A stretch of DNA of 63,470 nucleotides, the filler included, from Reticulomyxa filosa (taxonomy: Eukaryota > Protista > Foraminifera), in the NCBI GenBank assembly GCA_000512085.1. It is 22 parts of 22 records of this genome, joined end to end, with 100 filler letters (N's around TTAATTAATTAA, not from the genome) between each part and the next. Parts side by side here need not be neighbours in the genome. Positions count along the whole stretch, not along the records: positions 47,049 to 51,334 come from ASPP01019793.1; 21 more parts are not named here. One strand, written 5' to 3'. Shown piece by piece: positions 22,021 through 51,957 of this stretch (position 1 is the stretch's first letter; each line of letters begins with the position of its first letter). A model generated the notes under the pieces. The model did not search any database and had not been told where the DNA came from. It saw nothing but the letters and a program-made list of their open reading frames with translations. The position numbers and the translations under genes were made by a program.

Positions 22021-23564
22021 TCCATATGTATATAGGTCTTCAGGAGTTGAAGAGCAAGTACGGCCCTCGAGTGAAATCACAAGGTCGATTGCGATTGTTT
22101 ATAGCTGCCGGAGCTGTGCTATTTTTAGCATTGATTTTTTCGGTAATCCGATTGACCATGGCATTATATTCGGGTACATTCCACGAAGGCTTATGTAATC
22201 TATATTTCCAGTCTCCAATTCCGTATTCGTTTTTCAAATGTTGTTGCGTCTTATTCTTCATTCTGAGAATTCGAGAGTCGTTTCGACGCTGCAGTTTTGG
22301 CTTGCAAGAAAGACAAATCAAGATACTTGCTATTTGTGTCGTCTGCTTTTACTTATTCGTTAACATCAATTTGATTGCCGAAAGTGTCATTTGTTATGTT
22401 TCATTTTCATAATAATCATAATTATTATGTAAACGTTTTTTTTATCTCTTTTATTCTCCCAAAAGAGAAGAGGAGAGAAAGTATATACACTTTATTCATA
22501 CATTAAAATCAGGTAAGCATGGATGCACATTGTTCATTTATTTTGTTTTTTTTTTAAAAAAAAAAAAAAAAGGGGGTCGTGATCAAATCCGAAAGAAAGA
22601 CTTTGAAAGTTTTGCGGATTGCATCGAAGCGACCTTGAAGGACCATACAACACCTTATTTCCGAGCGTTCATTGCGCTTCACTTCATTGGTATGTATGTA
22701 TACATTTTTTTTGTAATCGTTTGAGTGATGTACTGTAAACACATTTTAACTGTTTGATTTAATAACAACAATAACAATAATAATAAAAGGCGAGTTTGTA
22801 ATAACGGTGGTATTGTTGCGCATCTATGTAAGGAACTTGTTGATAGTGACCGTGCAGTATGAGGAGACATGGACACGCCAACAAGGTACATTGGACACAC
22901 AAACGAAGTCGAAAGACAATTCCAAGCACTCAACATCACCTCTTGGCAATTCCAATGCCCCAACCGAACATGATGTGAAAAAGTCGGAAAATGTTCCTGA
23001 AAGTTTGAATACTGCTCCTGTTCAGTCCGATCCTAATGACAAGTTTTCCATCTCTTTTTTGTTTACATTTTATCAAATAACTTAAAAAAAAAAAAAAAAT
23101 TACAATAAATAAATGAAAATAGCACGACCCAAATAAGACAAAAATTGCAAATCCATGGATTGTCGGAAGATTATGTGCATTTGATTGCACGCAACGCAAA
23201 CCTGGCAATAATTGTGATGATTGGCAATATGATGACTGGAGTGATCATGTTAGAGGTTGGACGGTGGCTCATGTTGGTGGACACTTTTGTGAATTTGCTT
23301 TGCATTTACTTATGCTTTGCTTTCTCCCAACCCGTATATCGCTGTCTGTGCAAACTGTTTCATTACTGCTGTGCACGCTATTGTGTTGGAATGTTCCTCC
23401 AGTGCTGCTCTTGGAAATGCTGTGACTGCGATGCTTGTGTCATCTCTTGCTGGGTTGTCGAAGATGAGCCTTCTTGGGAAACCGCGCCGAGCAATAAAAG
23501 TGGCACAGATATCAGTGTTAAGAAAGATAACGAACGTGAAGAGTCCTATGATATTGAAATTTAA
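22021..23564 (+). CDS. Multi-exon 7TM (GPCR-like) membrane protein, 5'-truncated
   Basis: Hydrophobic exons (22026-, 22575-, 22790-, 23122-) with LFFILRIRESF, a long third intracellular loop, VDTFVNLLCIYLCFAFSQPVYRCLC and a Cys-rich tail. Same motif pattern as the 18973-19909 protein. Confidence 0.7.
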
Positions 23565-25089
23565 ATACTCTTGTTGTTTTGTTTCATTTGTGAGTCAATG
23601 CATTAAGGTGCAAGTGCAGCCATTTTTTTCTCGTTCATTTTATTTTTTTCTTTTTTTGCTATTGTTGCTTGTTTTTGTTCCTCAGGAATGTTTTGGTTTA
23701 AAAAAAATTTTTTTGCTGCCAATTTTTTAAATGTTCAACTTTCTTAAACAAGCTCATAATTTTTAAGTTAGAACCAAAAGAAGTGGATAATGAAGATAAC
23801 GGATTTAGTTTTGTTTATCCTATAAATCGAACAATCATCTTTTTGCTTTGCAGAATTGAAAGATTTAGTTTAGACAAGACATAAGTGCGCCGAGACACCA
23901 GAAGTGCTTGGGCCAGCAGAAGGTAGATCGACGCAGACTGGAACAAAGATAATATTTCGAAGAGACTGCCAGTCAATCAAAAAACAGACTATTCTATTAT
24001 CAAGTGGTAATACGATTGCTAACAAAAGTGTGTGAAAGCTACAATAGACTATAAAAATCCGTTGACTCAATAATGAAGCAAGAGCTCGTAATAATCAAAA
24101 AGTACAGCTCTACCGACAACAATTAAAAGTATTGAAACATCTTTAAAAGTTATTGAACGTATTCTCTTTTGCCATTTAATGGTAGTATATATTATATTAT
24201 GTTTATAACAATACAATTTGTTTCTGTGATGTTCAAATATTCAAAGTATTACACATTTCATAGACATAAAAATATTGTAAAATGCATATATGTCACTATT
24301 GCAAAATAAAAGTAATAATATTAGTGTAATTAGTGGTAATTGATATAAAATTTATTCTGGATCAAGTGATATGAGTATTCGAATATGTTATATTGAAAAG
24401 AAGAATTAATTATGCATAAAAAACTGAACACATAAAATGTCACATTATGAAGATTATTGATTTTCTATGAAAAGCAGCATTTAATCATAATTTTTTTAAA
24501 ATGACATCTCGACGTCGTGTGAAATCTAAAAATACCTTTGATCTTTAATAAAAGTGCAGTAAATCAGATAGTGATATACAGCATTACCACTAAAATTGTA
24601 CATGTTTATACGGTACATTTTGGCGAGTCTTTTCTTTTTTGAGGCCGGTTTTGTACTAATTTTCAATAGAAAGATGATGATATATCTCACTATCTGCGAA
24701 AGGTAGAAAGATAATTTTTTTAAAAGTATCTACTTGATGTGAAGGTTCTGATAAAAGCAACAAAACAATTTGAAATTTTCATGGTGTCAATATAAGTGTA
24801 GTAGGTTGCAAAGAAAACTGAACGCCTAAAACATATCTTATGATGATAATTGATTTTCTCAATGAAAAATCAACATTTAGACCNNNNNNNNNNNNNNNNN
24901 NNNNNNNNNNNNNNNNNNNNNNNNNNNTTAATTAATTAANNNNNNNNNNNNNNNNNNNNNNNNNNNNNNNNNNNNNNNNNNNNTTTTTGGAGATTAGAAA
25001 AAGGAAGCAAAAACTCTCAAATGAACGAACAAACAAACAAACAAAAATGTTTCCCTCCTTCCATTGAGCAAGGGAGATGGTCAACACTA

Positions 25090-26359: not shown

Positions 26360-26774
26360 GCCTTCGGTCAGCAGCGGCAGCTTGGCGTTTTCCTCGTCTT
26401 CGGCGTCATCGACGTCTTCTTCGTACACCGACAGGAAGCCGGCAAACACCAGTACCTGGCCGCTGGCGCGGAAGACGCCCTGGCCGACGTGGATGTCGAT
26501 GCTGGTAGTGTCGAACTTGGCCGGCGCCATCTGGCAGGCCAGCGTACGTTTCCAGATCATGTCGTACAGCTTGAACTGGTCGGTGGTCAGGAACGGCTTT
26601 ACCGACTCCGGCGTGCGCAGGATGGACGTGGGGCGGATTGCCTCGTGCGCTTCCTGGGCATTCTTGGATTTGTTCTTGTAGCTGACGGCGTTCTTCGGCA
26701 GGTGCTCGGCGTCAAAGCGTTCGCCGATATAGCCGCGGATTTCTTCTACCGCTTCATTGGCCAGCGCCACCGAG

Positions 26775-26805
<31 letters not shown>

Positions 26806-27457
26806 TACCCTGCCCGATATCGATACCTTCGTACAGTTGCTGCGCGGTACGCATGGTGCGGTCGGTGGTCATGCCCAGCTTGCGCACGGCTTCCTGTTGC
26901 AGCGTCGAGGTGGTGAACGGCGCGGCAGGGCTGCGCGATTTCTTTTTCTTCTCGATGCTGGCGACGCTGGCGTCGTGGCCGGCCAGCAAGCCCAGGATGC
27001 GGCTTTGTTCCGCCTCGTTGGGGATGTCGAACTGCTCCAGCTTTTTGCCGGCAAACTGGGTCAGCTTGGCGCTGAACTTGGTGCGGCTCTTGTGGCTGTC
27101 CAGGTGGACGGTCCAGTACTCCTGCTCGACGAAGGCCTTGATCTCGTTTTCACGTTCGCAGATCAGGCGCAGCGCCGGGCTTTGTACGCGGCCGGCGGAC
27201 AGGCCGCGGCGGATCTTCTTCCACAGCAGCGGCGACAGATTGAAGCCCACCAGGTAGTCCAGCGCGCGGCGTGCCTGCTGCGCGTCTACCAGGTCTTGTG
27301 CGATGGCACGCGGGTTGGCAATGGCTTCCAGTACCGCGTTTTTGGTGATCTCGTGGAACACCACGCGCTGTGCGGTACGGTCCTTCAACAGCTTTTTCTT
27401 GTTGAGGATTTCCACCAGGTGCCAGGAAATGGCTTCGCCTTCGCGGTCCGGGTCAGT
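26360..27457 (-). CDS. topA: Bacterial DNA topoisomerase I, internal fragment (GC-rich contig)
   Basis: TDPDREGEAISWHL (Toprim), RRALDYLVG, SAGRVQSPAL, PFTTSTLQQEA, catalytic-Tyr motif ITYMRTDS, AQEAHEAIRPT. The VHLDSHK..KLEQFD segment resembles Neisseriales TopA. Confidence 0.97.
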
Positions 27458-29907: not shown

Positions 29908-30193
29908 TTTTTCAAATTCAAAGACTTTTTTTTAAATTCTTAACTTTGAGAAACTCACTTTNNNNNNNNNNNNNNNNNNNNNNNNNNNNNNNNNNNNNNN
30001 NNNNNTTAATTAATTAANNNNNNNNNNNNNNNNNNNNNNNNNNNNNNNNNNNNNNNNNNNNTTTTTTTTTTTTTTTTTTTTTTTTTTTCCTCTCACAAAA
30101 TCTTTGAAAATTGATATATACAAATATGAATGTATATACATATGACGCATGTATATATGATGCATGTATATACGTATACGTCCACAACATATG

Positions 30194-32262
30194 AGAAAGG
30201 AACAAACGAGAAGAAATACCGAGCAGCAACGTCGCCGCGAGTAATCGCAAGATGTCGTTTACAAACGAAGCAGCACAGCGATTTGCCTCTCAGGTAAATC
30301 GCAAGCTGAGCGCGGCGCGACAAACGCCGACGCTGAGCGGACTGAGCGGCCCGGCAAACGGCGGGAAGCTGAAAATGGAGACATTGGAGGAGCTAAGCGA
30401 CAATAGCAAAGCAGTGGAGAACGCAAAGGAGACATTGGACATTGAGCACAGTGAAGAGATTACACTGTTGGACACGCCGTCGCCCAAGTCGTCGAAGCAC
30501 AGGCCTAAGGCGAGTTATAGCAATCACACGAAGAGCAACAGTCTGAGTCACAGTGGCAAGAAAAGCCAACAGTACCCACCGTACGAAGAGGAGCATGGAC
30601 ATCATGATCATGATCATGATCATGATCACGACCACGACACGACCACGATCACGACCACGATCATGATCACGACCACGATCACGATCACGACCGCGACCAC
30701 GACCACCACGACCACAACCACGACCACGACCACGATCGCGAAGACGACGAGATGGCAGTGGTGGTGGACGATGACGATGACGAGGATCTACGCATTGCCT
30801 CTACCGTCACCGTCGTCGCCGCTGCTACTGCTGCTGCTGCTTCTTCTTCCTCTCCTTCTTCCATCGACAAGATCAAACAAACAAATACACATAAAAAATC
30901 TCGCAAGCCTGACCAACACCTTCAAAAACATTCCCGAGGACATAGTGCTGAACAAAGAGATTCCGATGAAAACCTACCTCCAGTTGCCAAAGTCGAATTT
31001 GTTCGAAGGCATCGAAGTTCTCAAAATCATAGATCTCATTACGACGTACCATTGCGGTATTAACAAATTATATACATATGTACATACATTTTTATATATA
31101 CGTATACCTTTTTTTTTAATTTGTGCATGTTTTTTTAAAGGATATTACATATACATATATATATATATGCTATGTGATGATGTATAACAAAGGTCATTAT
31201 ATAAATCCGCTCCAACGTCTCCCGAACCAGGCATGTCGAGTCCGATGGAATTGGCCGACCACTTGCTGTATAACGGGTCTGCGCTGAACTTTTCATTGGG
31301 CAGAGACGATGGGAGGTATTCGAACCCGGTGAGCGTGAGTGCAGTGGGACACCACACGATTGCATTGAAAGAAGGGGGCAGCAAATCCAACCCGACATGG
31401 AATATCGGTGGGAAGACAGTTCCGTCATTGAGCGTTGGAAGCAGTGGCAATGGCAATGGCAATGGCAATGGCAATGGTGGCGGAGATATGCATCCGCATT
31501 CGAACCCTCACCCTTACTCTCACCCTCACTCCCACCCTTATCCTTATCCCTATCCTACGTCAGCCGTCACCACCATGACGACCACTTTGTCGTCGAAAAA
31601 GTCGGAAGAGCTGAAGAAAAAGAAGGAGTTCTCTGTCGACGAAGCAGAGGAGAAATCCGCGACAGTCTTGCCCAAAAATGTGTTGAAAAAGCTAGAGTTG
31701 GCCAATCCTCGAGAACATTATGGTATTACCAGTGTCAACGCTAATGTTAATGCTAATATTAATGCGAATGTTAATGCTAATGTTAATGCTAATGTTAATA
31801 CCAACACCAATGCCAATATCAATATCAATATCAATACCAATACCAATACCAATGCCAATATCAATACCAATACCAATACCAATGCCAATACTAACACTAC
31901 ATATCCTTTAATTGACAACACCAGTCCCGAATTTGGGGCCTTGGATGTCCCCCAAGCCCCGATCTTCTCTCAACCCTCCATCACGCAACGCGCGACGGTT
32001 GGATACGAAGAGGAAAAGGTCGAGTTGGACAACGAGAGCAATCCAGCCAGCGATTTGGAGAGACCCGACTACGACGAAACCGACCCCGCCAATAATGAAA
32101 CCCAAGAGTATCTGCACGAAATCAAAAACGAACTCGCCACTTTGCTTGTGGGCGGAGAGCGCTATCGAGAGGAGGTCGATGTTGTCATCGACGAAGACAT
32201 TGGGCAAGTCCAGCAAGAAGAAGAAGAAGAGGAGCAAAAGTCGTCCAGACCTACTCAACAGG
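30194..32262 (+). CDS. Internal part of a large low-complexity protein with a (His-Asp)n tract and (NX)n repeats
   Basis: ORF 30252- joins 30752-31063 through a 1-nt shift within the CACGAC/CATGAT repeat near 30637. Intron about 31057-31192, then ORF 31233- runs to the contig end. Confidence 0.6.
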
Positions 32263-32362: not shown

Positions 32363-33434
32363 AAGGACATGGCCATGCAGTTTCTGGGCAACCTGTTCGA
32401 GTACGTGCTGGCCAAGAAGGGCGAACAGCTGAACATCGTGGGCGCCACCTCCGGCGATACCGGCTCGGCGGCCGAGTACGCGATGCGTGGCAAGCAGGGC
32501 ATCAACGGTTCATGCTGAGTCCGGACGGCCTGATGAGCCCGTTCCAGCGGGCGCAGATGTACAGCCTGCAGGACGCCAACATCCACAATATCGCCATCAA
32601 GGGCATGTTCGACGATTGCCAGGATATCGTGAAGGCGGTGCAGAACGACCACGCCTTCAAAAGCCAGTACAAGATCGGCACCGTCAACTCCATCAACTGG
32701 GCGCGTGTGGTGGCGCAGGTGGTGTACTACTTCAAGGGCTACTTCAATGCCACCAGTAGCAACGACGAGCAGGTCAGCTTCTGCGTGCCGTCCGGCAACT
32801 TCGGCAACGTCTGCGCCGGCCACATCGCCCGCCAGATGGGTCTGCCGGTGCAACGCCTGATCGTGGCCACCAACGAGAACGACGTGCTGGACGAGTTCTT
32901 CAAGACCGGCCGCTACCAGCCGCGTGGCACCGCTAATACCTGGGTAACGTCCAGCCCGTCGATGGACATCTCCAAGGCGTCCAACTTCGAGCGTTTCGTG
33001 TTCGACCTGCTGGGCCGTGATGGCGCTGCCGTGGCCGCGCTGTGGGCCGAAGTGGACGCCGGCCGCGGTTTCGACCTGGGCGACAAGCTGGCGCAGATCC
33101 GCGAGCAGTTCGGTTTTGTGTCCGGCAAGAGCAGCCACGCCGACCGCCTGGCTACCATCCGCACCGTGGACGCCGAAGACCAGGTGGTGGTGGACACCCC
33201 GACACCAGCCGACGGCATCAAGGTGGCGCGCGAAGTGCGCCTGCCGGGTGAAACCATCGTCTGCCTGGAAACCGCGCTGCCGGCCAAGTTGCCGACACCA
33301 TCCGCGAGGCGCTGACCGCGACGCACCGCGTCCGGCCGGCTTCGAGGGGCCTGGAAGACCTGCCGCAAAAGGTAACGGTGTTCGACGCCGACGCCGACGC
33401 GGTGAAAGCCTACGTGCGCCAGGCCTTGGCTTGA
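32363..33434 (+). CDS. thrC: Bacterial threonine synthase, 5'-truncated, with several indel errors (GC-rich contig)
   Basis: KDMAMQFLGNLFEY (PLP-Lys region), GATSGDTGSAAEYA, GTVNSINWARV, VPSGNFGN, ATNENDVL, SPSMDISKASNFER, LETALPAK; ends AYVRQALA* at 33434. Confidence 0.96.
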
Positions 33435-33457
33435 GGCGATAACCGTCTTGCATGACG

Positions 33458-33491
33458 AACAAGGCCCGCCATCTGGCGGGCCTTGTTGTTT
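33458..33491 (+). terminator. Rho-independent terminator after thrC
   Basis: aacaaggcccgcca-tc-tggcgggccttgtt GC-rich hairpin followed by a T-rich tail, about 25 nt after the stop codon. Confidence 0.85.
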
Positions 33492-36026
33492 GCGGCCAAC
33501 CCGGGGCGCTGACGGCGGCAAGGTTGGCCGCAAGCTGTGGGCCGGCAACAAANNNNNNNNNNNNNNNNNNNNNNNNNNNNNNNNNNNNNNNNNNNNTTAA
33601 TTAATTAANNNNNNNNNNNNNNNNNNNNNNNNNNNNNNNNNNNNNNNNNNNNCAATAGTAAAATAATGCATTTCAATATCACACATATTAAAAAAAAAAA
33701 TACAATAGACAAAAATAGTGCTGGACGTACCAACACAACACAATGTCCATCTACGGAGCCACTAGCACTGTTTGGAAAAGTGGCGTTGACATATGGGATC
33801 ATTCAGTGTGGAATATTGGCGTGTTGTCCCCCACAATGGCTCGCAAGTGGCGGAGGACACAGGCGGATAAATCACAACAGTGATTACACCTTGTGTACTA
33901 CGCAAACGATCGAGCCAAAGGAAATGTCGGCCGATAAATATAACTAAGGTACAAATGATTATTTTTTTTATTTTTCGAACATGTCATCAATTATTATAAA
34001 ACGTATAATTAAATAAATAAATGTACATAATCTTTTTTTTGATCCACAAGAACAGTTTGGCATTAAAGTGTTTATATATACTTTATGTGATGCATATTTT
34101 TTGAAAAAAAAAATAGGCAAATGACAACGACGACGCAAAGGTGTAATTGGTGCCGAAATATCAAAGCTAATGTAAAAGTTGTTTTATTTATTTTGTATTT
34201 ACATACATAGTCAATTGTTTGTGTGTTTTGAAGACAGGCACAACTGGTGATGAAAAAAAAAAATAAGGGGTGAAATCCAACCCCGTCTCCGAAAGGAGTG
34301 AAAACGGTTTGTGTTATCTTTTTTTTAAAAAAATTATATCAACATATTGTGTGCATTGTAACACAGGAGTCCCCCTCCAAAGTCAAAATCGTTAATTTAT
34401 TTCCCTGTCCCCTCAACACATACAAAATAAATAAATGGGGTAGAAAGCCAACCCCGTATACATAAAAATAATGAAAGGTTTGTTTTATTTAATATATGTA
34501 TACATTTCTTTTATTAAATAATGTGATTTTATTTGTGTTTTGTGAACATAGGAATTCCCCCTATCAAGAGATACAAATATATTATTTTTTGTTTGTTTGT
34601 TTGTTTCCCCCCTCCCCCCTCATCAATAAACAAAATAAATTTATTTTTTTTAGTGTTTGCACCACAGGAAAGAAATATGGAATTGGATTTTGGACTCCAA
34701 GTACAAAAGGTAATTGTATTTTCTTACGTTATTTTTAAAATATAAAAAATACTTTTTTGTGTGTGTTTGCATAGATCGAAGAGCAACAAGAGAAAATCAA
34801 GGATGTTTTTGAATAAATTGTAGAAAGGGGAAGGGGAAAAAAAGGGATAATAAATTGGGAAAAAAAAGAGCATAAGAGGAGAAAAAAATAGATATAAATG
34901 GGGGGAGAAAATATATAATAAAGGGAATTGAAAAAAGAAAAAAGAAAAAAAAAGATTTTTATAGTTGTTAGGAAGAAAAAATAAATATAAAATAAAAAAG
35001 ATAATAATAATTGGGGAAAAAAAAAGAATTGATAAAAAGAAAAAAAGAAAGAATATTAAAAAAAGAAAAAAAAAATGAAATAACTTATTATTTTTTTTAA
35101 GGTGGAGCTATGACTCCAAGAATTATTTATGTCCAGTGGACATAGTTAAGTACACCTACAAATATATATCTTTTTTTTTGTTTGACTTGTTTAAAATAAA
35201 AAAATATACAGCGTAGAACAACGCAGGCAAAGACAGCGAGTTCCAGTAACAAAAAAAAATTACATACTATTCAACATTATACTTACTTTACATACTGTAC
35301 TTTGTGTTTCCATATTTTTTTTGCAACACTAAAATAAGAATTTTATTTTATATAGACTGCAAGTGAAAGGATATACGTGGCTGTGGATATGTGATAGCGT
35401 GATTAAATGGTGAATACTGAGTGTGAAATGACAAAGATCCTCAGTGACAAGAGAGTGGAACGCATCGAACTGAAGCAGCGAGTAATAAAAATGAAGACAT
35501 TGCGAAGTGAAGTCGGAACGGTCCATGTATATCTGGACAATAATTCCGATATTATGATGCATGGTACACGACATCGTAATTATCAATTGTAGCAGTCTCA
35601 GGTATGGTAGTGTGTGTTATTCTTTATCAACACTTATATTGAATTTGCTCTGTGAATATACCAAATGATGTGATTGCACACAGTATTGATATTTTGATCA
35701 GTATTATCCATTGGATGGAGGGTGGTGCAATTATTCCACTGCGGGCATGAAACAATGGGATTGAATATATATGTATATATTACAGTAGTCAAAGTCTTGG
35801 AGTCGGTGTAATCCTTCGCATGTGGAACCATTGTTTATCGAAGAAATTGGCTACAGCAAGTTCCTGTTTGAATTTGAGATCACGTTATGATGCACCTTTT
35901 NNNNNNNNNNNNNNNNNNNNNNNNNNNNNNNNNNNNNNNNNNNNTTAATTAATTAANNNNNNNNNNNNNNNNNNNNNNNNNNNNNNNNNNNNNNNNNNNN
36001 CCCCCTTTTTTTTTTTTGAGGTTGTG

Positions 36027-38315: not shown

Positions 38316-39707
38316 ATGCAAAAGAAATCATCAACATCCGAGGCGAAAAAAAATGCAAAAAAGAATGCAACTGCTCCTTCCCTAATTCAACCCCAACAGA
38401 AGAAATTTCAGCGTTTTGAGGGCAGTACACTGTTCCGTCACCGGTTGGTGCTTGCGACACTGACGCACAAGAGCATAGAAATAGACAACATACGACTGCA
38501 CGGTTCAGCGGATGAAAGTGGCAGCGACGAAAAGAACGAAGCAGACAAAGAGACAAGAAATAAGCCAGGAATAACCGATTATGAACTAAATTTCTTGCGT
38601 TTGCTCGATCGAATAACAAACGGATCGTATATTGAGATCAACGAGACGGCGACCAATGTGAAATATATCCCCGGGACGCTGACCGGATGTACGAAGCATA
38701 TAATCCACCAATGCAGTTTGAATCGCGGAGTGACCTATTGGTTGGAGCCGTTGTTGTATCTGCTGCCATTCAGCAAAGAGCAAACCAACGTAATCACATT
38801 GCAGGGCACGACGTATCATGAATTGGATGTAAGCATCGACGTCATTCGCGGTGTGTTGCTGCCAATAATTAAGAGGCAATTTGGGATGACGGACATTCGC
38901 ATTCAATTGACTCGCAGAAGCTTGCCACCTTCGGGAGGTAATTCTTACATAGGGACAAAGGGGGGGGGGGGAAAATACATTATATCAATACGATTTGATA
39001 TTGAATTTTTTAAACGAAACGTTAAACATATATAAATACGTATACATATAACATTTAAAAAAAAAAAAAAAGGAGGAGAAGTGACCATTACAATTCCAAT
39101 AGTAAAACAATTACGAACCATTGATATGTTGGATGTCGGAATGATTAAACGTATTCGTGGGCTGTGCTATACAATTGCAATGGCTCCGACATTGGCCAAT
39201 CGTGTTCGAACAGAATGCAACAATGTGCTGTACAATTATATTAGTGACGTTTGGATTTTCAATGACAGCACCAAACGCCATGAACTGCAAAAACATGTAC
39301 CCAAACTTTATAAGGACAAAATTAGCGCGGGCTATGGGCTCTCATTGATCGCCGAAAGTACCAATGGCATTTTGCTTTCTGTGCACGCACAACACAAAAC
39401 GGATGCTGATATGACGGCGGAAGAATTTGGCCAATACGTCAGCAAATTGTTATTGCAAGAGATTTCATACGGTGGCACTGTCGATACCACACTGCAGAGC
39501 ATTATACTCATTTTCATGACATTGTGCACTGAAGACGTCAGTCGCGTCCGTTTGGGACGAATGACCAAACACACAGTCCATATTTTGAGATTACTCAAAG
39601 ACATGCTTGGCGTCACTTTTAAACTGAAAGAAGATTCCGAAACAGGGACCATTTTTGCTTCGTGTATGGGAATCGGCTTTTCCAATGTTTGGAGACAAGC
39701 CTCGTAG
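38316..39707 (+). CDS. RCL1: RNA 3'-terminal phosphate cyclase-like protein Rcl1 (40S biogenesis)
   Basis: FEGSTLFRHRLVLATLT..PGITDYELNFLRLLDRITNGS. Intron 38938-39072 restores PPSGGGEV. C-terminus SCMGIGFSN. Confidence 0.94.
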
Positions 39708-46531: not shown

Positions 46532-49500
46532 CTTAAACATTTTGAGACACTTTAACAAACTTAAAGAAAAGTATCATGAGGTGAATGAGGATCTGTATTA
46601 AAACATAGAATTAATAATTATTGAATTATGAAATGAGAGCGAAAATAACAAAAATTGACCTCAATTGGTTTATTAAAATATTTTCGTGTATTTGAGCATT
46701 GTCAAATCTTATTTTGTTTCTTGGCCACTGATTTTGTCTTTTTGTGTTCTCATTGCAAAAAGCTGTCCAGCGAATTTTTAAAAAGGTTTTGATTGTCAAA
46801 ATTTATTCAGATAAACAATCCATACCATCATTTCCAATTTTTTTTGGGTGAAATTTCATATCTCACTCCAATACCAGTTGTGAAAATAATCAAAATATAT
46901 CTTATTCTTTATCATTAATGCACATGAACATTTAATAACCTACCTGTTNNNNNNNNNNNNNNNNNNNNNNNNNNNNNNNNNNNNNNNNNNNNTTAATTAA
47001 TTAANNNNNNNNNNNNNNNNNNNNNNNNNNNNNNNNNNNNNNNNNNNNCAAAACTAAATGTTATTAACACCTACATAAATAAATATTGGTTGTAGGAGAA
47101 AAGTGCTTGATTTTAGATTTTTGAGCATCATTTGTCCTAAAGGTCTTTGTCAATTTTTGCTTTTTTCAAGATTTCTAGTTTCTAATATTTTGCTCTTTTT
47201 CTTCCATTTTTAGATATTTAAATGTTTGTTTTTTATTTGAAAGACTTTGTTCTTCAGCAAAAGTTCTTTATCAAATACAACGACAAGATTGTAAAAACAA
47301 ATTGTATGTCTATATAAGTTATGTTTCATTGTTGGCTCAGAAATGGTTAAACTTACTATAGTATTCAACATAAACTACAACTCTTTCTCAAGCCCTGCTT
47401 TTTGTACATTCAAATGCATTTTTTAAAATTTTTTAACTTAAACATTAACCTTTAGTTTTTTCATCAGACATTTTTTTATCGAATAATTAAATTGTATTAA
47501 AGCAAAAAAAGCAGATGAATAAACAATGTGCAAATGTACTTGTTTATCTTCAATAGCCCTTATGATTTAACAGACAAAACACTTTTTTTTGTCCATATTA
47601 CTTCACTAAAGTATGTATTCAATGCTTACTGTTATTTTGAAATAACAATTGAAAAACTACATGCCTTGTAAATCTTTTATAAGAAAATACTTTAAATTAA
47701 TCCGTTTTTTTAATGGAAAAAATTTATTATCTTTATAAGAGAGATTGATATCAATGATGTTTGGAAAAGGTTGTCAAATCCTAATTTTTTTTTAAACACT
47801 TTTTTATGCTACACGTTTTATTTTGTATTTTTTTGTAATCTCCAAAAGACGTAGATATGTTTAAAAAAAAAAAATTAGCTTTCTACCTTTCGTAGATAGT
47901 GAGATAAACAGTTGAGAGTTTACAACAAAAACGAAAATTAGTTAAATAAAGACAAAAAACAACAAAAAAGATTGACCCAACATCTTTAATATTAAAATTT
48001 TCAATAGCATTGTTTTGTATGTGGGTTTTCTGCTGCTGAAAAGATTGCACAAAATGTAATACGAAAGATTTGCTCTCGGTTTTAGTTTACAACAACAAAA
48101 CAAGTTAAATTAAATAACAAAAAACAAATGACAAGACAAGACCAAGTAACAAAACAAAGTGAAGTCGCACATTTTAATTTAATTTAATTTTTTGCTAAAA
48201 GGTTTTATCTAATTAATTATTCAACATTGAGAGTAAACAATTGATATGGAGGAAAAAGTGCATAAAAGAGATTGGAAAACAAATACATGTGTTCAAATTT
48301 CAGAAACTAAATTGCATTTATATCTTTCAAGACTTGATTTCTATTTGGAACTGTCACAGATTTGTCATGAAAGAATAGTTTGTTGCTGTTTCTAAAATAA
48401 CATATATATACTTTCAAAGCACTCGAATTATGGAATTATGACAAAGTGAAAATGAAAGACTATTCTCTTTTTCTGTTTTTTTATTTTTTGGTGAAGACTA
48501 CCGGAAACAAAAATAGAAGAAGCAATTGTATTGAGTTTGCAAAGATATGATTTTTGATGTGTGTATTTCTATCAAAAAACTAACTTCAATATACATTTCA
48601 TCAAATTCTTTCATGTAAAAAAGCACATACCAAGCCAAAAACGATTTTTTTTTTGTTGAAAAACATGCTATCCTGAATAATTTTCAAAAAAGAAGTGTGA
48701 TGGCAAGAAAATAATAGAGATATCTAACGAAAGCTTATTCTTATAAAAATAAAAAAAAAATATGCATTGAGATCCCCTTGATCTCGACAATGCGTTTCTC
48801 TACTTCTTATTTTATAAATCCAAGTTTACAAGTCTATTTATACTCTCCAACGTCAACACGTGCATGACACATTTTATAAGATATGAGTTTTGTACTTCTG
48901 TATTTGAAATTAAAAAAGTGTGTTATTGCGTTATTTGCTAACAATACATTGGAAAATTGGAAAAATTTGAGCAACAAAATAGAATATTACATGTGAAATT
49001 GATTGAAATATAAATCTGTTTACTCACTTTTTTTTATACTGTCTTCGAAGAAGAGCGTTTCTCTACACTTTCTTCACTCATGTTAATGAAGATTTAGGAC
49101 AAAAAAGCTAACTTAAACAAACTCATTCTTATTAATGAAGATTTTGGAAAAAAAAGTTAGCTTCAAAGCTTCGGAAAGCTATTTGTGGAAAAGCTACGTT
49201 TATTGGCACAAGTTTTTCGTGTTGAGACTTTGCACAAATTTTGGGACTGCACATTTACAGCCACATCTGTGCTAATACACAAAGCATGAACTCAGAAAAT
49301 GACTTTTTCCATTGTTATGAATACAATTGTTCAATAGATATACAATTATGTGCGTTAAAATATTCACTATTTGCAGTAGATAGTGGAACATTTAGTGAAG
49401 TTCGAATGTAATTTGTTTTGGATCATTAGAAAAAAATTGTTAATTAAATAGACTTTATTGTGCTTTTTCGAAACCAATTAAAAAAATACAAAACATATAT

Positions 49501-49740
49501 TCACTACAGTGCACTAGCTGCGTCAAATAAATTTAAAGATTCTATTCTTAATCATTGTTGCACCTTCTTCAGAAAGAAGCTTCTGTGTTTTTATTTTGAC
49601 ATTTAGAATTGGATTTTTATGTTTTTGAAAGAAAAATTTAAGCAATTTATAAATGAAATCTCAACAACGTATCAAAGGCACCTCTTTAGTAAGGCTCCAT
49701 TTTCAATCTTTTAGAAAGCTCATTGTCCTTCTGTGTAGAA

Positions 49741-50127
49741 ATGGCACGTCAGACTATGCATACATTTTCGTACAAGTCGCGAGAAGGAAAATTTTGTTTG
49801 AACGGAGGTAATACGTACGTAGATCAAGAAGCGTACTCAGGAAATAGTACTTATTACAATGATGAAACAGCTCAACATTTGAAAAATCAAGGACCGATTC
49901 CTGTTAATACTTGGAAAGTCACAGCAATTACAGACAAAAAGGGCAAACATACTCTTGTATTGGCTGAAGAGAATGTGAAAAACAGTTATGGACGAGATGG
50001 TTTTTTGATTCATGGTGATAATCAGAAAAAAAATCACACTGCGTCAGAGGGTTGTATTATTGTTGGCCCTACAATACGAAAACAAATTAAAAAAAATGAC
50101 TTGATAGAGGTTAATAACGACATTTGA
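49741..50127 (+). CDS. Tlde1/DUF2778-family L,D-transpeptidase-like peptidoglycan-modifying protein (128 aa, intronless)
   Basis: Ordered family motifs AYSG..YND..AQHLKNQGPIPVNTW..GKHTLVL..YGRDGFLIHGDN..HTASEGCII, with the catalytic His and the SxGC Cys present. ATG at 49741 (the ORF track starts at an upstream TTG). Confidence 0.88.
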   Translation: MARQTMHTFSYKSREGKFCLNGGNTYVDQEAYSGNSTYYNDETAQHLKNQGPIPVNTWKVTAITDKKGKHTLVLAEENVKNSYGRDGFLIHGDNQKKNHTASEGCIIVGPTIRKQIKKNDLIEVNNDI

Positions 50128-50352
50128 TGGAGTCCTTTTTTTTTATTTTTTAAGCACAGTTCACTCGTTTTTTGTTTTGGACCCACTCCGTGTTTGATGG
50201 CTCTATTTTTATTAGAACTATGTCTTCTCTTATGTCATAATTATCTTAAAAAGTTGTCTGCAAAAGAACATTTTATATACCTCCATATTTAACAAACAAA
50301 AATTTTTTTTTTTGGAGTAATTGCTTTAATGAAAAAAAGCAAATCCAATTGG

Positions 50353-50878
50353 CTTAATTTAAAGCAAAAAAAGATTATTAAATTGTAGTGAAAGCCTCAC
50401 TAATTACAGGAGAAGTTTTACTAGGAATGAAGAAACCTTTTCTCTCAACAACTTTCACTGTTTTTGTCTTTTTTGGCTCATTTAGACATAATATATTCCC
50501 AACTATACATGCTTTTTTTTTGTTAAAAAAAAGAAATGTGCAAAACAAATTTTTCTTTTTCTAAATGAAATAGAACTGAAAATTGCTTTGCCATACCATA
50601 CAATGTTTAGCATAATAACAAAGATTTCAATAGCATTTACAAAGATATTCTTTCACGATTTTGATTTTTTTTACAAATGCTTTTTTTTGTCATCAATATG
50701 TTTACCATTGTAATATGGGCATTTCACTTGTACAATATTTTTAACATTTTTTTATAATTTTTAAATAAAAATTCAATATTAAATATTGTTTACTTAATTT
50801 AAAACAAAAAAAGATTATTAAATTGTACTAGGAATGAGGAAACTTTTTTCTCTCAACAACTTTCACTGTTTTTATCTT
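50353..50878 (+). repeat. Imperfect direct repeat (50353-50470 and 50793-50878)
   Basis: Both copies read cttaatttaaa.caaaaaaagattattaaattgta...ctaggaatga.gaaac.ttttctctcaacaactttcactgttttt; the first has an extra internal segment. Confidence 0.85.
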
Positions 50879-51957
50879 CTTTTTTACTTTTTTGTCGAAA
50901 TCTCATTTAGTAAACACTTTTGTATTACACTTGGCGCTGCTTCCCATTCTTTCTACAAAATCAAAAAGAACAAACATGAATAGAAATTTATGTACACTTT
51001 ATCTGTCTACTTATCCAACTCATCAAAAATCTTTTGTAAATGTTAAAACTAACTAAACGAAAGTAAGAAAGCTTCTTTGTGTCAAAAGACGTTTTGGGGA
51101 GAAAAGGGAGTAGAAAATCATTCTACATATGATACAAGAAAGTAATCAAGTATTTTAATAATATATTCAATATTTATATTTTAATCCAAAAAACTTTGTT
51201 TTCGTTCTTAAAAAACTTGAAAGTGAATTTTTTTTTGCAAACTATTTCAAAAATAGAATATACAAATACTTCATGAGAAAAATTTGTGCCAAATCAATAT
51301 TTTTTCACCGGAATTTCACCTCTGTGCTTGCAATNNNNNNNNNNNNNNNNNNNNNNNNNNNNNNNNNNNNNNNNNNNNTTAATTAATTAANNNNNNNNNN
51401 NNNNNNNNNNNNNNNNNNNNNNNNNNNNNNNNNNTTTAAAAACTACAAGATTAGTAGATTATTTTTTTAAAAAAATTAGGTTTAAATCTTTATTTTTCAT
51501 GGAGAAAATCGATTCTTCATATAGTGCCATTTAGGTATGGCAGTTTTTTGCAATCTACTGTATAATGTTATTTTGGAAAATTTTAAAGGGTAAGAGAAAT
51601 AGTAAAAACAAATTCTATTTGTATATGTCGTCAGAATAATATGTTTCTTATTCTTGTAGCACGCTACCCTTTATCCAACTGTTTTTGAGTCTACATTTTG
51701 TAACATATGGTCCAAACGAATAACTAAAATAAAAAAGCGATATCTAGCTGTTTATCATAATTTTGTTCTTTTGTGTATTGAAAATATATCCATAACGAAC
51801 TCTTTGCAAGAAATCATATACTGTGTTTATTTTACTAATTATTTCTTTGGAGACAGTTTCAATTAAAAATAATAGCAGTACAAAGTTGGAAATTCTCTCA
51901 GTAACAAATTACCTTCAATACAATCATTAATTGTAATTTTCCTTTTAAATATAATCG

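Follow-up and report, generated by a model that had tools for sequence, protein, structure and literature searches.

The stretch of DNA analysed here, in the following called the window, covers 63,470 nucleotides of Reticulomyxa filosa (assembly GCA_000512085.1) and is composed of 22 short contigs of 1.1-6.1 kb each, which are separated by N/TTAATTAATTAA spacers. One of these contigs (47049-51334; ASPP01019793.1), hereafter termed the Tlde1 contig, carries on its plus strand an open reading frame (ORF; P0001, 49741..50127) of the Tlde1/DUF2778 type, whose product is a minimal protein with a predicted L,D-transpeptidase fold. Tlde1 (DUF2778) proteins are antibacterial effectors of type VI secretion systems (T6SS) which possess this fold and attack peptidoglycan. 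The original prediction regarded the ORF as a candidate bacterial peptidoglycan toxin gene that was domesticated by a protist.

The ORF starts with an ATG at 49741 and terminates with a TGA at 50125-50127, and its 128 codons plus stop codon specify a product of 128 aa. Both the intactness of the frame and the full motif series claimed for it, including the catalytic His and Cys, could be verified, with YSG at residues 32-34, GPIP at 51-54, GRDGFLIHGD at 84-93 and SEGCI at 102-106. The active-site block R85-x5-H91-G-D ... A101-S-E-G104-C105-I106 (49993..50058, plus strand) comprises invariant columns of two family alignments (23 and 25 sequences), with R85, H91, G104 and C105 being invariant in both, and the codons of the predicted catalytic residues lie at 50011-50013 (His91) and 50053-50055 (Cys105). 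When aligned with 22 relatives, the product retains all 15 invariant columns (G51, P52, I53, P54, L74, R85, F88, H91, D93, A101, S102, G104, C105, I106 and V124). Two of the eight nearly invariant columns, as read from the alignment, deviate from the consensus in the product, which has N56 and E76 there.

In agreement with the AT-rich codon usage noted before, the guanine-plus-cytosine (GC) content of the ORF is 0.36 and that of its third codon positions (GC3) is 0.28. The longest stop-to-stop frame on the contig comprises 144 codons, compared to a mean of 80 for the longest frame in 300 mononucleotide shuffles, none of which exceeded 132. Since homology is established (see below), a chance origin of the open frame is irrelevant here. 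The context of the ATG (A at position -3, G at position +4) provides only a weak hint. None of the sequences GGAG, GAGG or AGGA is found within 20 nt 5' of the ATG, which is in line with the reported lack of a clear Shine-Dalgarno site.

The Tlde1 contig comprises 4286 bp with a GC content of 27.3% and an ORF coverage of 0.10, and under the standard code contains a single stop-to-stop frame of at least 80 aa. The AT-rich and homopolymer-rich upstream flank (47049..49740) holds no recognisable gene, its longest stop-to-stop frame being 67 aa. The likewise AT-rich downstream flank (50128..51334; longest frame 73 aa) is non-coding and contains, 3' of the ORF, a local duplication of about 120 nt, the copies of which (50353-50474 and 50793-50882) are 86-97% identical and lie about 410-440 nt apart. 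None of 22 small ORFs (40-66 aa) of the contig could be assigned to a Pfam family at E <= 0.01, and reading the contig under codes 4 and 6 yielded no family above the cutoff (14 frames). Moreover, tblastn searches with two Hcp proteins and six downstream ORFs from bacterial homologue loci did not detect remnants of Hcp or immunity genes on the contig. These results corroborate that the ORF stands alone in 4.3 kb of non-coding DNA and lacks T6SS, immunity or phage neighbours. A T6SS effector-immunity module, i.e. Hcp, VgrG, PAAR or RHS together with an immunity gene beside the ORF, is not found on the contig, and no phage gene that would indicate a phage or prophage location is present among the 22 small ORFs analysed with Pfam. 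Sigma-70-like promoter sites are not enriched (three seen, 4.2 expected), and intrinsic-terminator-like sites are absent between 49400 and 50400.

The only sequence link from the Tlde1 contig to another contig (22021-24883, likewise AT-rich) is a 28-nt element at 47879..47906 on the plus strand, which follows an A-run and has its partner at 24683-24710 on the minus strand, within a 39-nt match at 95% identity. Two matches of the element were found, with none expected from 100 shuffles, and it may represent a dispersed repeat or a regulatory element of the host.

Family membership and predicted fold

Against the Pfam profile PF10908 (Tlde1_dom, DUF2778 superfamily), the check that the original prediction had proposed, the ORF product scores 56.5 bits (E = 4.8e-15) and thus exceeds the gathering score of 30.1, with residues 30-116 aligning to profile positions 4-104 of 120. 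A still higher score, the best of all families, is obtained with phrog_24118, a phage family (75.3 bits, E = 9e-21, profile positions 2-112 of 121). DUF5675 remains just below its threshold (26.0 versus 26.7 bits), NCBIfam provides no family for the product, and YkuD (Pfam PF03734) is not among the families found at E <= 1. The YkuD profile matches some of the homologues weakly (20-27 bits), and the predicted fold of the product is YkuD-like (see below).

The AlphaFold2 model of the product, which was built on the family alignment, shows a pLDDT of 83.9 and a pTM of 0.81. A Foldseek search of this model against the PDB places three Salmonella Tlde1a entries on top (E = 6.6e-5 to 2.8e-4, query TM-score (TMq) 0.65-0.67), followed by L,D-transpeptidases. 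VIA-align superimposes the model on Tlde1a with a Z-score of 12.4-12.5 and a root-mean-square deviation of 2.1 A over 111-113 residues, the runners-up being the L,D-carboxypeptidases Csd6, Bd1075 and Pgp2 (Z 11.1-11.6), with L,D-transpeptidases also following. By sequence, Tlde1a was not reached in the PDB, neither by phmmer, which returned only chance-level matches to nerve growth factor (E >= 0.24), nor by two family profiles, which recovered only the YkuD enzyme 4lpq with a weak E-value of 0.13-0.24. In this weak match, H91 and C105 of the product align with the catalytic His and Cys of 4lpq at an equal spacing of 14 residues. Taken together, Pfam PF10908, Foldseek and VIA-align all recover a Tlde1-type fold. 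Judged from its sequence, the product hence is a true, albeit minimal and core-only, member of the Tlde1/DUF2778 family with an intact His/Cys motif, and according to the model it adopts an L,D-transpeptidase fold that is closest to Tlde1a.

In the accessible text of the Tlde1a papers (10.1101/2020.02.18.954545, PMC9638812), H121 and C131 are described as the catalytic residues of Tlde1a, and conservation between the subfamilies is stated for R115 and G130, while a capping subdomain (beta6-7, alpha1) inserted above the active site is ascribed, among the Tlde1 subfamilies, to Tlde1a only. The R-x5-H and G-C spacings of the ORF product equal those of R115/H121 and G130/C131 as given there. For the capping insert, however, the product has no room, because it comprises 128 aa compared to 172-174 aa in Tlde1a, about 50 chain residues of which remain unaligned (span 2-163). 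Since the insert is absent, we do not file the product as Tlde1a. Salmonella Typhimurium Tlde1a (Tae5; PDB 7UMA, 7UO3, 7UO8) and the ORF product thus have in common the Pfam family PF10908 and, as far as can be judged from the aligned sequences, the active-site spacings and the catalytic His and Cys. They differ in that the structural alignment gives an identity of only 19%, the His-to-Cys spacing is 10 in Tlde1a but 14 in the product, and the (S/T)HGC motif of Tlde1a is replaced by SEGC. In addition, the ORF is located in eukaryote-type DNA and possesses no T6SS, Hcp or immunity neighbour.

Relatives in bacteria, metagenomes and phages

A word-indexed protein search yielded 23 proteins, one of which is the window's own product (a cluster of one member from one contig). 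The 22 non-self proteins stem from metagenome-type sources only, are about 120 aa long and show 31-44% identity. A profile search returned 2878 proteins at E <= 1e-5, and among the 120 matches listed the identity to the ORF product does not exceed 43%. By scanning DNA, 241 relatives were detected in prokaryote contigs (one genome per species), at least 562 in metagenome contigs and 261 in IMG/VR viral contigs. The best 80 of the 241 prokaryote relatives are all bacterial, show 29-58% identity in their best segment and include members of Acidobacteriota, Burkholderiales and Enterobacterales besides other groups. The comparisons below refer to a set of 240 related loci (80 genome, 80 metagenome and 80 viral loci); an open frame of more than 150 aa is present upstream in 21 of these 240 homologue matches.

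The bacterial relatives are true toxin genes. Of seven bacterial loci scanned, three have Hcp directly upstream and, on the downstream side, a small ORF that belongs to no family, and in a further one the Tlde1 domain forms the C-terminal domain of an RHS protein. The small Hcp-linked or RHS-fused Tlde1 proteins, which are found in Enterobacterales, Burkholderiales, Acidobacteriota and others, share 29-43% identity over most of their length and the same invariant residues with the ORF product. They occur, however, in Hcp-Tlde1-small ORF cassettes or as RHS C-terminal toxins, whereas the ORF has no such partners. A polymorphic-toxin form is seen in a metagenome-assembled genome of Geobacteraceae (locus L002, 336-5312), where a 1659-aa RHS-repeat protein ends in a Tlde1 domain and is followed by a 206-aa ORF without family, which is a candidate immunity gene.

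In six of eight viral loci, phage hallmark genes (terminase, head-tail adaptor, tail fibre, DNA polymerase, HNH) are located at most 4 kb away, and the phage members score 75-125 bits on phrog_24118. A small Tlde1 protein is present in 58 named phage records, i.e. 48 from Erwinia, eight from Dickeya and one each from Yersinia and Citromicrobium. For the Burkholderia phage JC1, a podovirus, the accessible part of the source describes gp41 as a 136-aa DUF2778 protein encoded one gene upstream of the terminase large subunit. The Citromicrobium microvirus vB_Cib_ssDNA_P1 comprises only 4360 nt and six genes. Its gpB (locus L241; MG214764.1, 1328-1738), which is annotated as hypothetical, is a Tlde1-domain protein with 30.8% identity to the ORF product over 88% of the length. 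In a related amoyvirus, an M15 peptidase-related protein is mentioned among four predicted genes in the introduction of the corresponding paper. No mention of a function of the microvirus Tlde1 gene was found in the accessible text of the microvirus papers searched. Given the occurrence of Tlde1 in a six-gene microvirus and of the M15 peptidase-related protein in the amoyvirus, we infer a lysis or wall-remodelling role for the small phage Tlde1 proteins, and gpB may be the lysis enzyme of the Citromicrobium phage. Proteins of the phrog_24118 type such as JC1 gp41 and Citromicrobium gpB resemble the ORF product in their size of about 120 aa and their domain-only architecture, but are encoded by phage genes within dense phage genomes, while the ORF lacks any phage neighbour.

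Structure-based comparisons point to the same groups. The ESM Atlas neighbours are Tlde1 clusters of Pseudomonadota and Uroviricota, none of them eukaryotic, and in BFVD small phage Tlde1 proteins come first (TMq 0.82-0.85), with the fold also occurring inside phage tail-lysozyme and endolysin proteins. A route via giant viruses was considered and dropped, as BFVD contains no giant-virus match with E < 0.7.

The relative with the highest identity (46% over 90 aa) is of the phrog_24118 type and lies on a viral contig with 41% GC. In a FastTree phylogeny of 217 sequences and 127 columns, for which 24 of the 240 matches were dropped (duplicates, shorter than 90 aa or X-containing), the ORF product sits on a branch of 1.06 (median 0.2) and in no supported clade; its joining with the sequence L166_V is flagged as a possible long-branch artefact. 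The phylogeny of bacterial and phage homologues suggested earlier could thus be obtained, but did not provide a supported sister for the ORF product. Because the tree gives no supported clade, bacteria and phages both come into question as donor. The T6SS-effector origin assumed in the original prediction hence receives no specific support, considering that the form of about 120 aa is as common in phages, that the closest relative is phage-borne and that a supported sister is missing. As far as these sequences tell, a phage may have served as donor as readily as a T6SS-bearing bacterium.

Residence of the contig and history of the gene

Eukaryotic genes are found elsewhere in the window, namely XPB/ERCC3 (325 bits), RasGEF, RNA 3'-phosphate cyclase (in two frames) and MutL_C. 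The top non-self relatives of the window's XPB are 60-61% identical, among them a transcriptome protein that bears the label of the foraminiferan Ammonia, and the identity to a protein of Spongospora (Rhizaria) is 51%. As the best non-self XPB relatives include the Ammonia protein, the host is foraminiferan-like, as had been proposed. Two GC-rich contigs are indeed, as described before, of bacterial type: contig 26360-27457 has 61% GC and carries a fragment of a bacterial-type DNA topoisomerase (Topoisom_bac, 299.8 bits), and contig 32363-33552 has 64% GC. With codon usage and tetranucleotides unlike those of the host, they are bacterial contamination or associates. Scans of the window for Rfam families and tRNAs found nothing.

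Compared to the 240 related bacterial, metagenomic and phage loci, the Tlde1 contig is unusual in both GC content (0.27, with a minimum of 0.40 in the loci) and ORF coverage (0.10, versus at least 0.69 in all loci and at least 0.85 in the 80 viral ones). When GC-normalised tetranucleotides are compared with the ORF masked, the Tlde1 contig correlates with 18 of the 21 other contigs at r = 0.29-0.54, and at r = 0.14-0.18 with the remaining three, i.e. the two GC-rich bacterial contigs and contig 30062-32262. A/T runs of six or more occur at 12.6 per kb, like in the other AT-rich contigs. The relative synonymous codon usage (RSCU) of the ORF correlates with that of the pooled host genes at r = 0.57, which is within the range of the host genes themselves (0.41-0.59), whereas the ORFs of the two GC-rich contigs show values of -0.04 and -0.11 and six bacterial homologues values of 0.03-0.42. 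Thus, the Tlde1 contig looks like eukaryotic-type non-coding DNA and is unlike bacterial or phage DNA. The resemblance to host non-coding DNA claimed originally is borne out by coding density, A/T runs, tetranucleotides and the lack of genes under other codes.

These comparisons bear on the possibility that the contig is not host DNA but derives from an AT-rich bacterium, a symbiont, a phage or a giant virus, or is an assembly chimera of a prokaryotic gene and host DNA. While the same assembly does contain the bacterial contigs 26360-27457 and 32363-33552, no host gene is present on the Tlde1 contig and the family is otherwise seen only in bacteria and phages among the matches listed, we consider such an origin improbable. 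The low ORF coverage, the absence of anything coding under codes 4 or 6 and the lack of a giant-virus structural match with E < 0.7 are at odds with it. Moreover, the GC content and GC3 of the ORF blend into the flanks, no prokaryotic gene is found within 2.7 kb upstream or 1.2 kb downstream, and homopolymer density and tetranucleotides match those of the eukaryotic contigs. Alternatively, a different AT-rich eukaryote present in the culture or sample, i.e. a food organism or co-isolate, could be the source of the gene. Such a source would be compatible with the missing physical linkage to a recognised host gene, with the sole linked contig (22021-24883) being anonymous, and with composition correlations that are only moderate (0.29-0.54). 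It appears very unlikely, however, given that tetranucleotides, homopolymers and codon usage are within the range of the contigs bearing XPB, RNA 3'-phosphate cyclase, RasGEF and MutL, and that the window gives no sign of a second class of eukaryotic composition. Nuclear residence is favoured by coding density, composition, codon usage and the shared 28-nt element, with no host-gene linkage on the contig itself. Since the contig is non-prokaryotic, its composition host-like and the host foraminiferan-like, horizontal transfer into eukaryotic DNA is likely the best reading of the sequence data.

With respect to the age of the transfer, the product has the highest fraction of F, Y, M, I, N and K residues (FYMINK, 0.359) and the lowest fraction of G, A, R and P residues (GARP, 0.188) of all 217 family members, with both values falling within the range of host proteins, and the GC3 of 0.28 compares to a homologue median of 0.67. 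Along with the RSCU correlation, this is in line with the proposed amelioration towards host composition. Because these values are extreme while the frame and the invariant residues were kept, the gene has probably been under AT pressure for a long time, and the retention of the open frame and of all invariant residues under such pressure is what selection would produce. The explanation we favour on these grounds is that of an intact, maintained and functional Tlde1-type enzyme gene of bacterial or phage ancestry which was acquired by a eukaryote, and we hold the chances of it being correct to be evenly balanced.

Several observations weigh against this explanation. The ORF product is a singleton whose best non-self protein match is 44% identical, and neither the 22 non-self proteins nor the 120 matches listed of the 2878 include one with a eukaryote-labelled source, although the protein collection does contain foraminiferan transcriptomes. 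Orthologues in related protists are thus missing among these matches. As stated in the original prediction, the product has no classical signal peptide, the maximum 9-residue hydropathy within the first 40 aa being 0.08. The upstream signal-peptide exon considered there as a way out was not recovered either, as none of 64 two-exon models is convincing, the best one depending on an intron of 1.2 kb and resembling the matches that T-rich DNA yields by chance. All host genes measured have a higher GC3 (0.38-0.55) than the ORF, whose value of 0.28 comes close to the non-coding background, which would also fit an unexpressed insert, and as a GC3 below 0.30 occurs in eight of the 240 homologue matches, an AT-rich donor could explain the composition. 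Furthermore, E103 stands where the canonical (S/T)HGC motif has a His, although Glu is the consensus in the family considered here. Finally, there is no recognised host gene on the Tlde1 contig, and as contig 22021-24883 has no recognised gene either, the 28-nt element links it to an anonymous contig.

Some of these points would equally suit a neutral, probably unexpressed insert that was 'dead on arrival', i.e. a real transfer which is intact since it is young and which inherited its AT-richness from the donor phage or bacterium. Apart from the missing orthologues, the missing signal peptide and upstream exon, the background-like GC3 and the existence of AT-rich donors, the position of the closest relative on a 41%-GC viral contig is in accordance with this scenario. 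We nevertheless regard it as unlikely, albeit worth serious consideration. Of 217 sequences, the product has the amino-acid composition that is shifted furthest towards AT, yet the frame and all 15 invariant residues are intact, and none of the 240 related loci has a GC content below 0.40. In addition, no trace of donor flanking genes is left on either side of the ORF, which suggests age or a very clean insertion.

Among the other contigs of the window, contig 30062-32262 (46% GC) carries two long ORFs of 311 and 361 aa without a Pfam family above the gathering score. Its tetranucleotide correlation with the AT-rich contigs is only 0.18, and codon usage is host-unlike in one of the ORFs (r = 0.05) and host-like in the other (r = 0.58). 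Two homopolymers of 12 G and 15 A (window positions 38960-39080), located in the RNA 3'-phosphate cyclase gene or next to it, fall at the gap between its frames 38316-39035 and 39081-39707, which could be a short AT-rich intron, the result of homopolymer sequencing errors, or both. Two further long ORFs, 60379-62244 on the minus strand (621 aa) and 9447-10646 on the plus strand (399 aa), show host-like codon usage and no Pfam family above the gathering score, and may be lineage-specific host genes.

Possible function and comparison with known systems

The uptake of bacterial peptidoglycan-degrading enzymes by eukaryotes is known from the dae genes of ticks and other eukaryotes, which are derived from Tae effectors. 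Laterally acquired NlpC/P60 hydrolases have, according to the accessible part of the source, been described for Trichomonas vaginalis. Like these, the ORF would be a gene of bacterial origin for an antibacterial enzyme that acts on cell walls, in a eukaryote which needs no immunity protein. The folds are different, however, since those enzymes possess a papain-like amidase/NlpC-P60 fold instead of the predicted L,D-transpeptidase fold of the ORF product, and so are the bond specificities. Moreover, expression, secretion and activity were demonstrated in those cases, whereas the ORF is a candidate of this kind and its product has no signal peptide. A full-text literature search, the coverage of which was incomplete so that absence is unproven, did not reveal any description of a Tlde1/DUF2778 gene in a eukaryote.

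By analogy with Tlde1a, Cys105 would be activated by His91 and attack the bond between meso-diaminopimelate at position 3 (mDAP3) and D-Ala4 in the tetrapeptide stems of peptidoglycan. The terminal D-Ala would thereby be removed (L,D-carboxypeptidase activity) or exchanged for another D-amino acid, i.e. the chemistry predicted for the ORF product would be that of Tlde1a, and the resulting depletion of cross-link donors would weaken the bacterial wall. Because the capping subdomain is absent, the balance of these activities may differ from that of Tlde1a and be more like that of the uncharacterised Tlde1b/c or phage forms. The enzyme might be used to attack ingested or intracellular bacteria, and no immunity protein would be needed since a eukaryote has no peptidoglycan. 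That the foraminiferan keeps a phage- or bacterium-derived Tlde1 as an antibacterial weapon against prey in food vacuoles or against endobionts, without an immunity protein, is a tentative and rather doubtful proposal.

If true, the L,D-transpeptidase fold would here have been domesticated by a eukaryote for the first time, and eukaryotes would have taken up a second family of cell-wall toxins of interbacterial or phage type, with a chemistry of its own. Irrespective of any use by the host, the Tlde1 form of about 120 aa constitutes a large uncharacterised phage family, which is present even in a six-gene microvirus and deserves a functional test. Eukaryotic borrowing of bacterial cell-wall enzymes is already known as a phenomenon. 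Provided that the gene is nuclear and its product active, this borrowing of cell-wall weapons would extend to a new fold, to a new bond (mDAP-D-Ala of the stem peptides) and to the Foraminifera, which are major bacterivores with many endobionts, and phages residing in the prey would come into consideration as a possible source of such genes.

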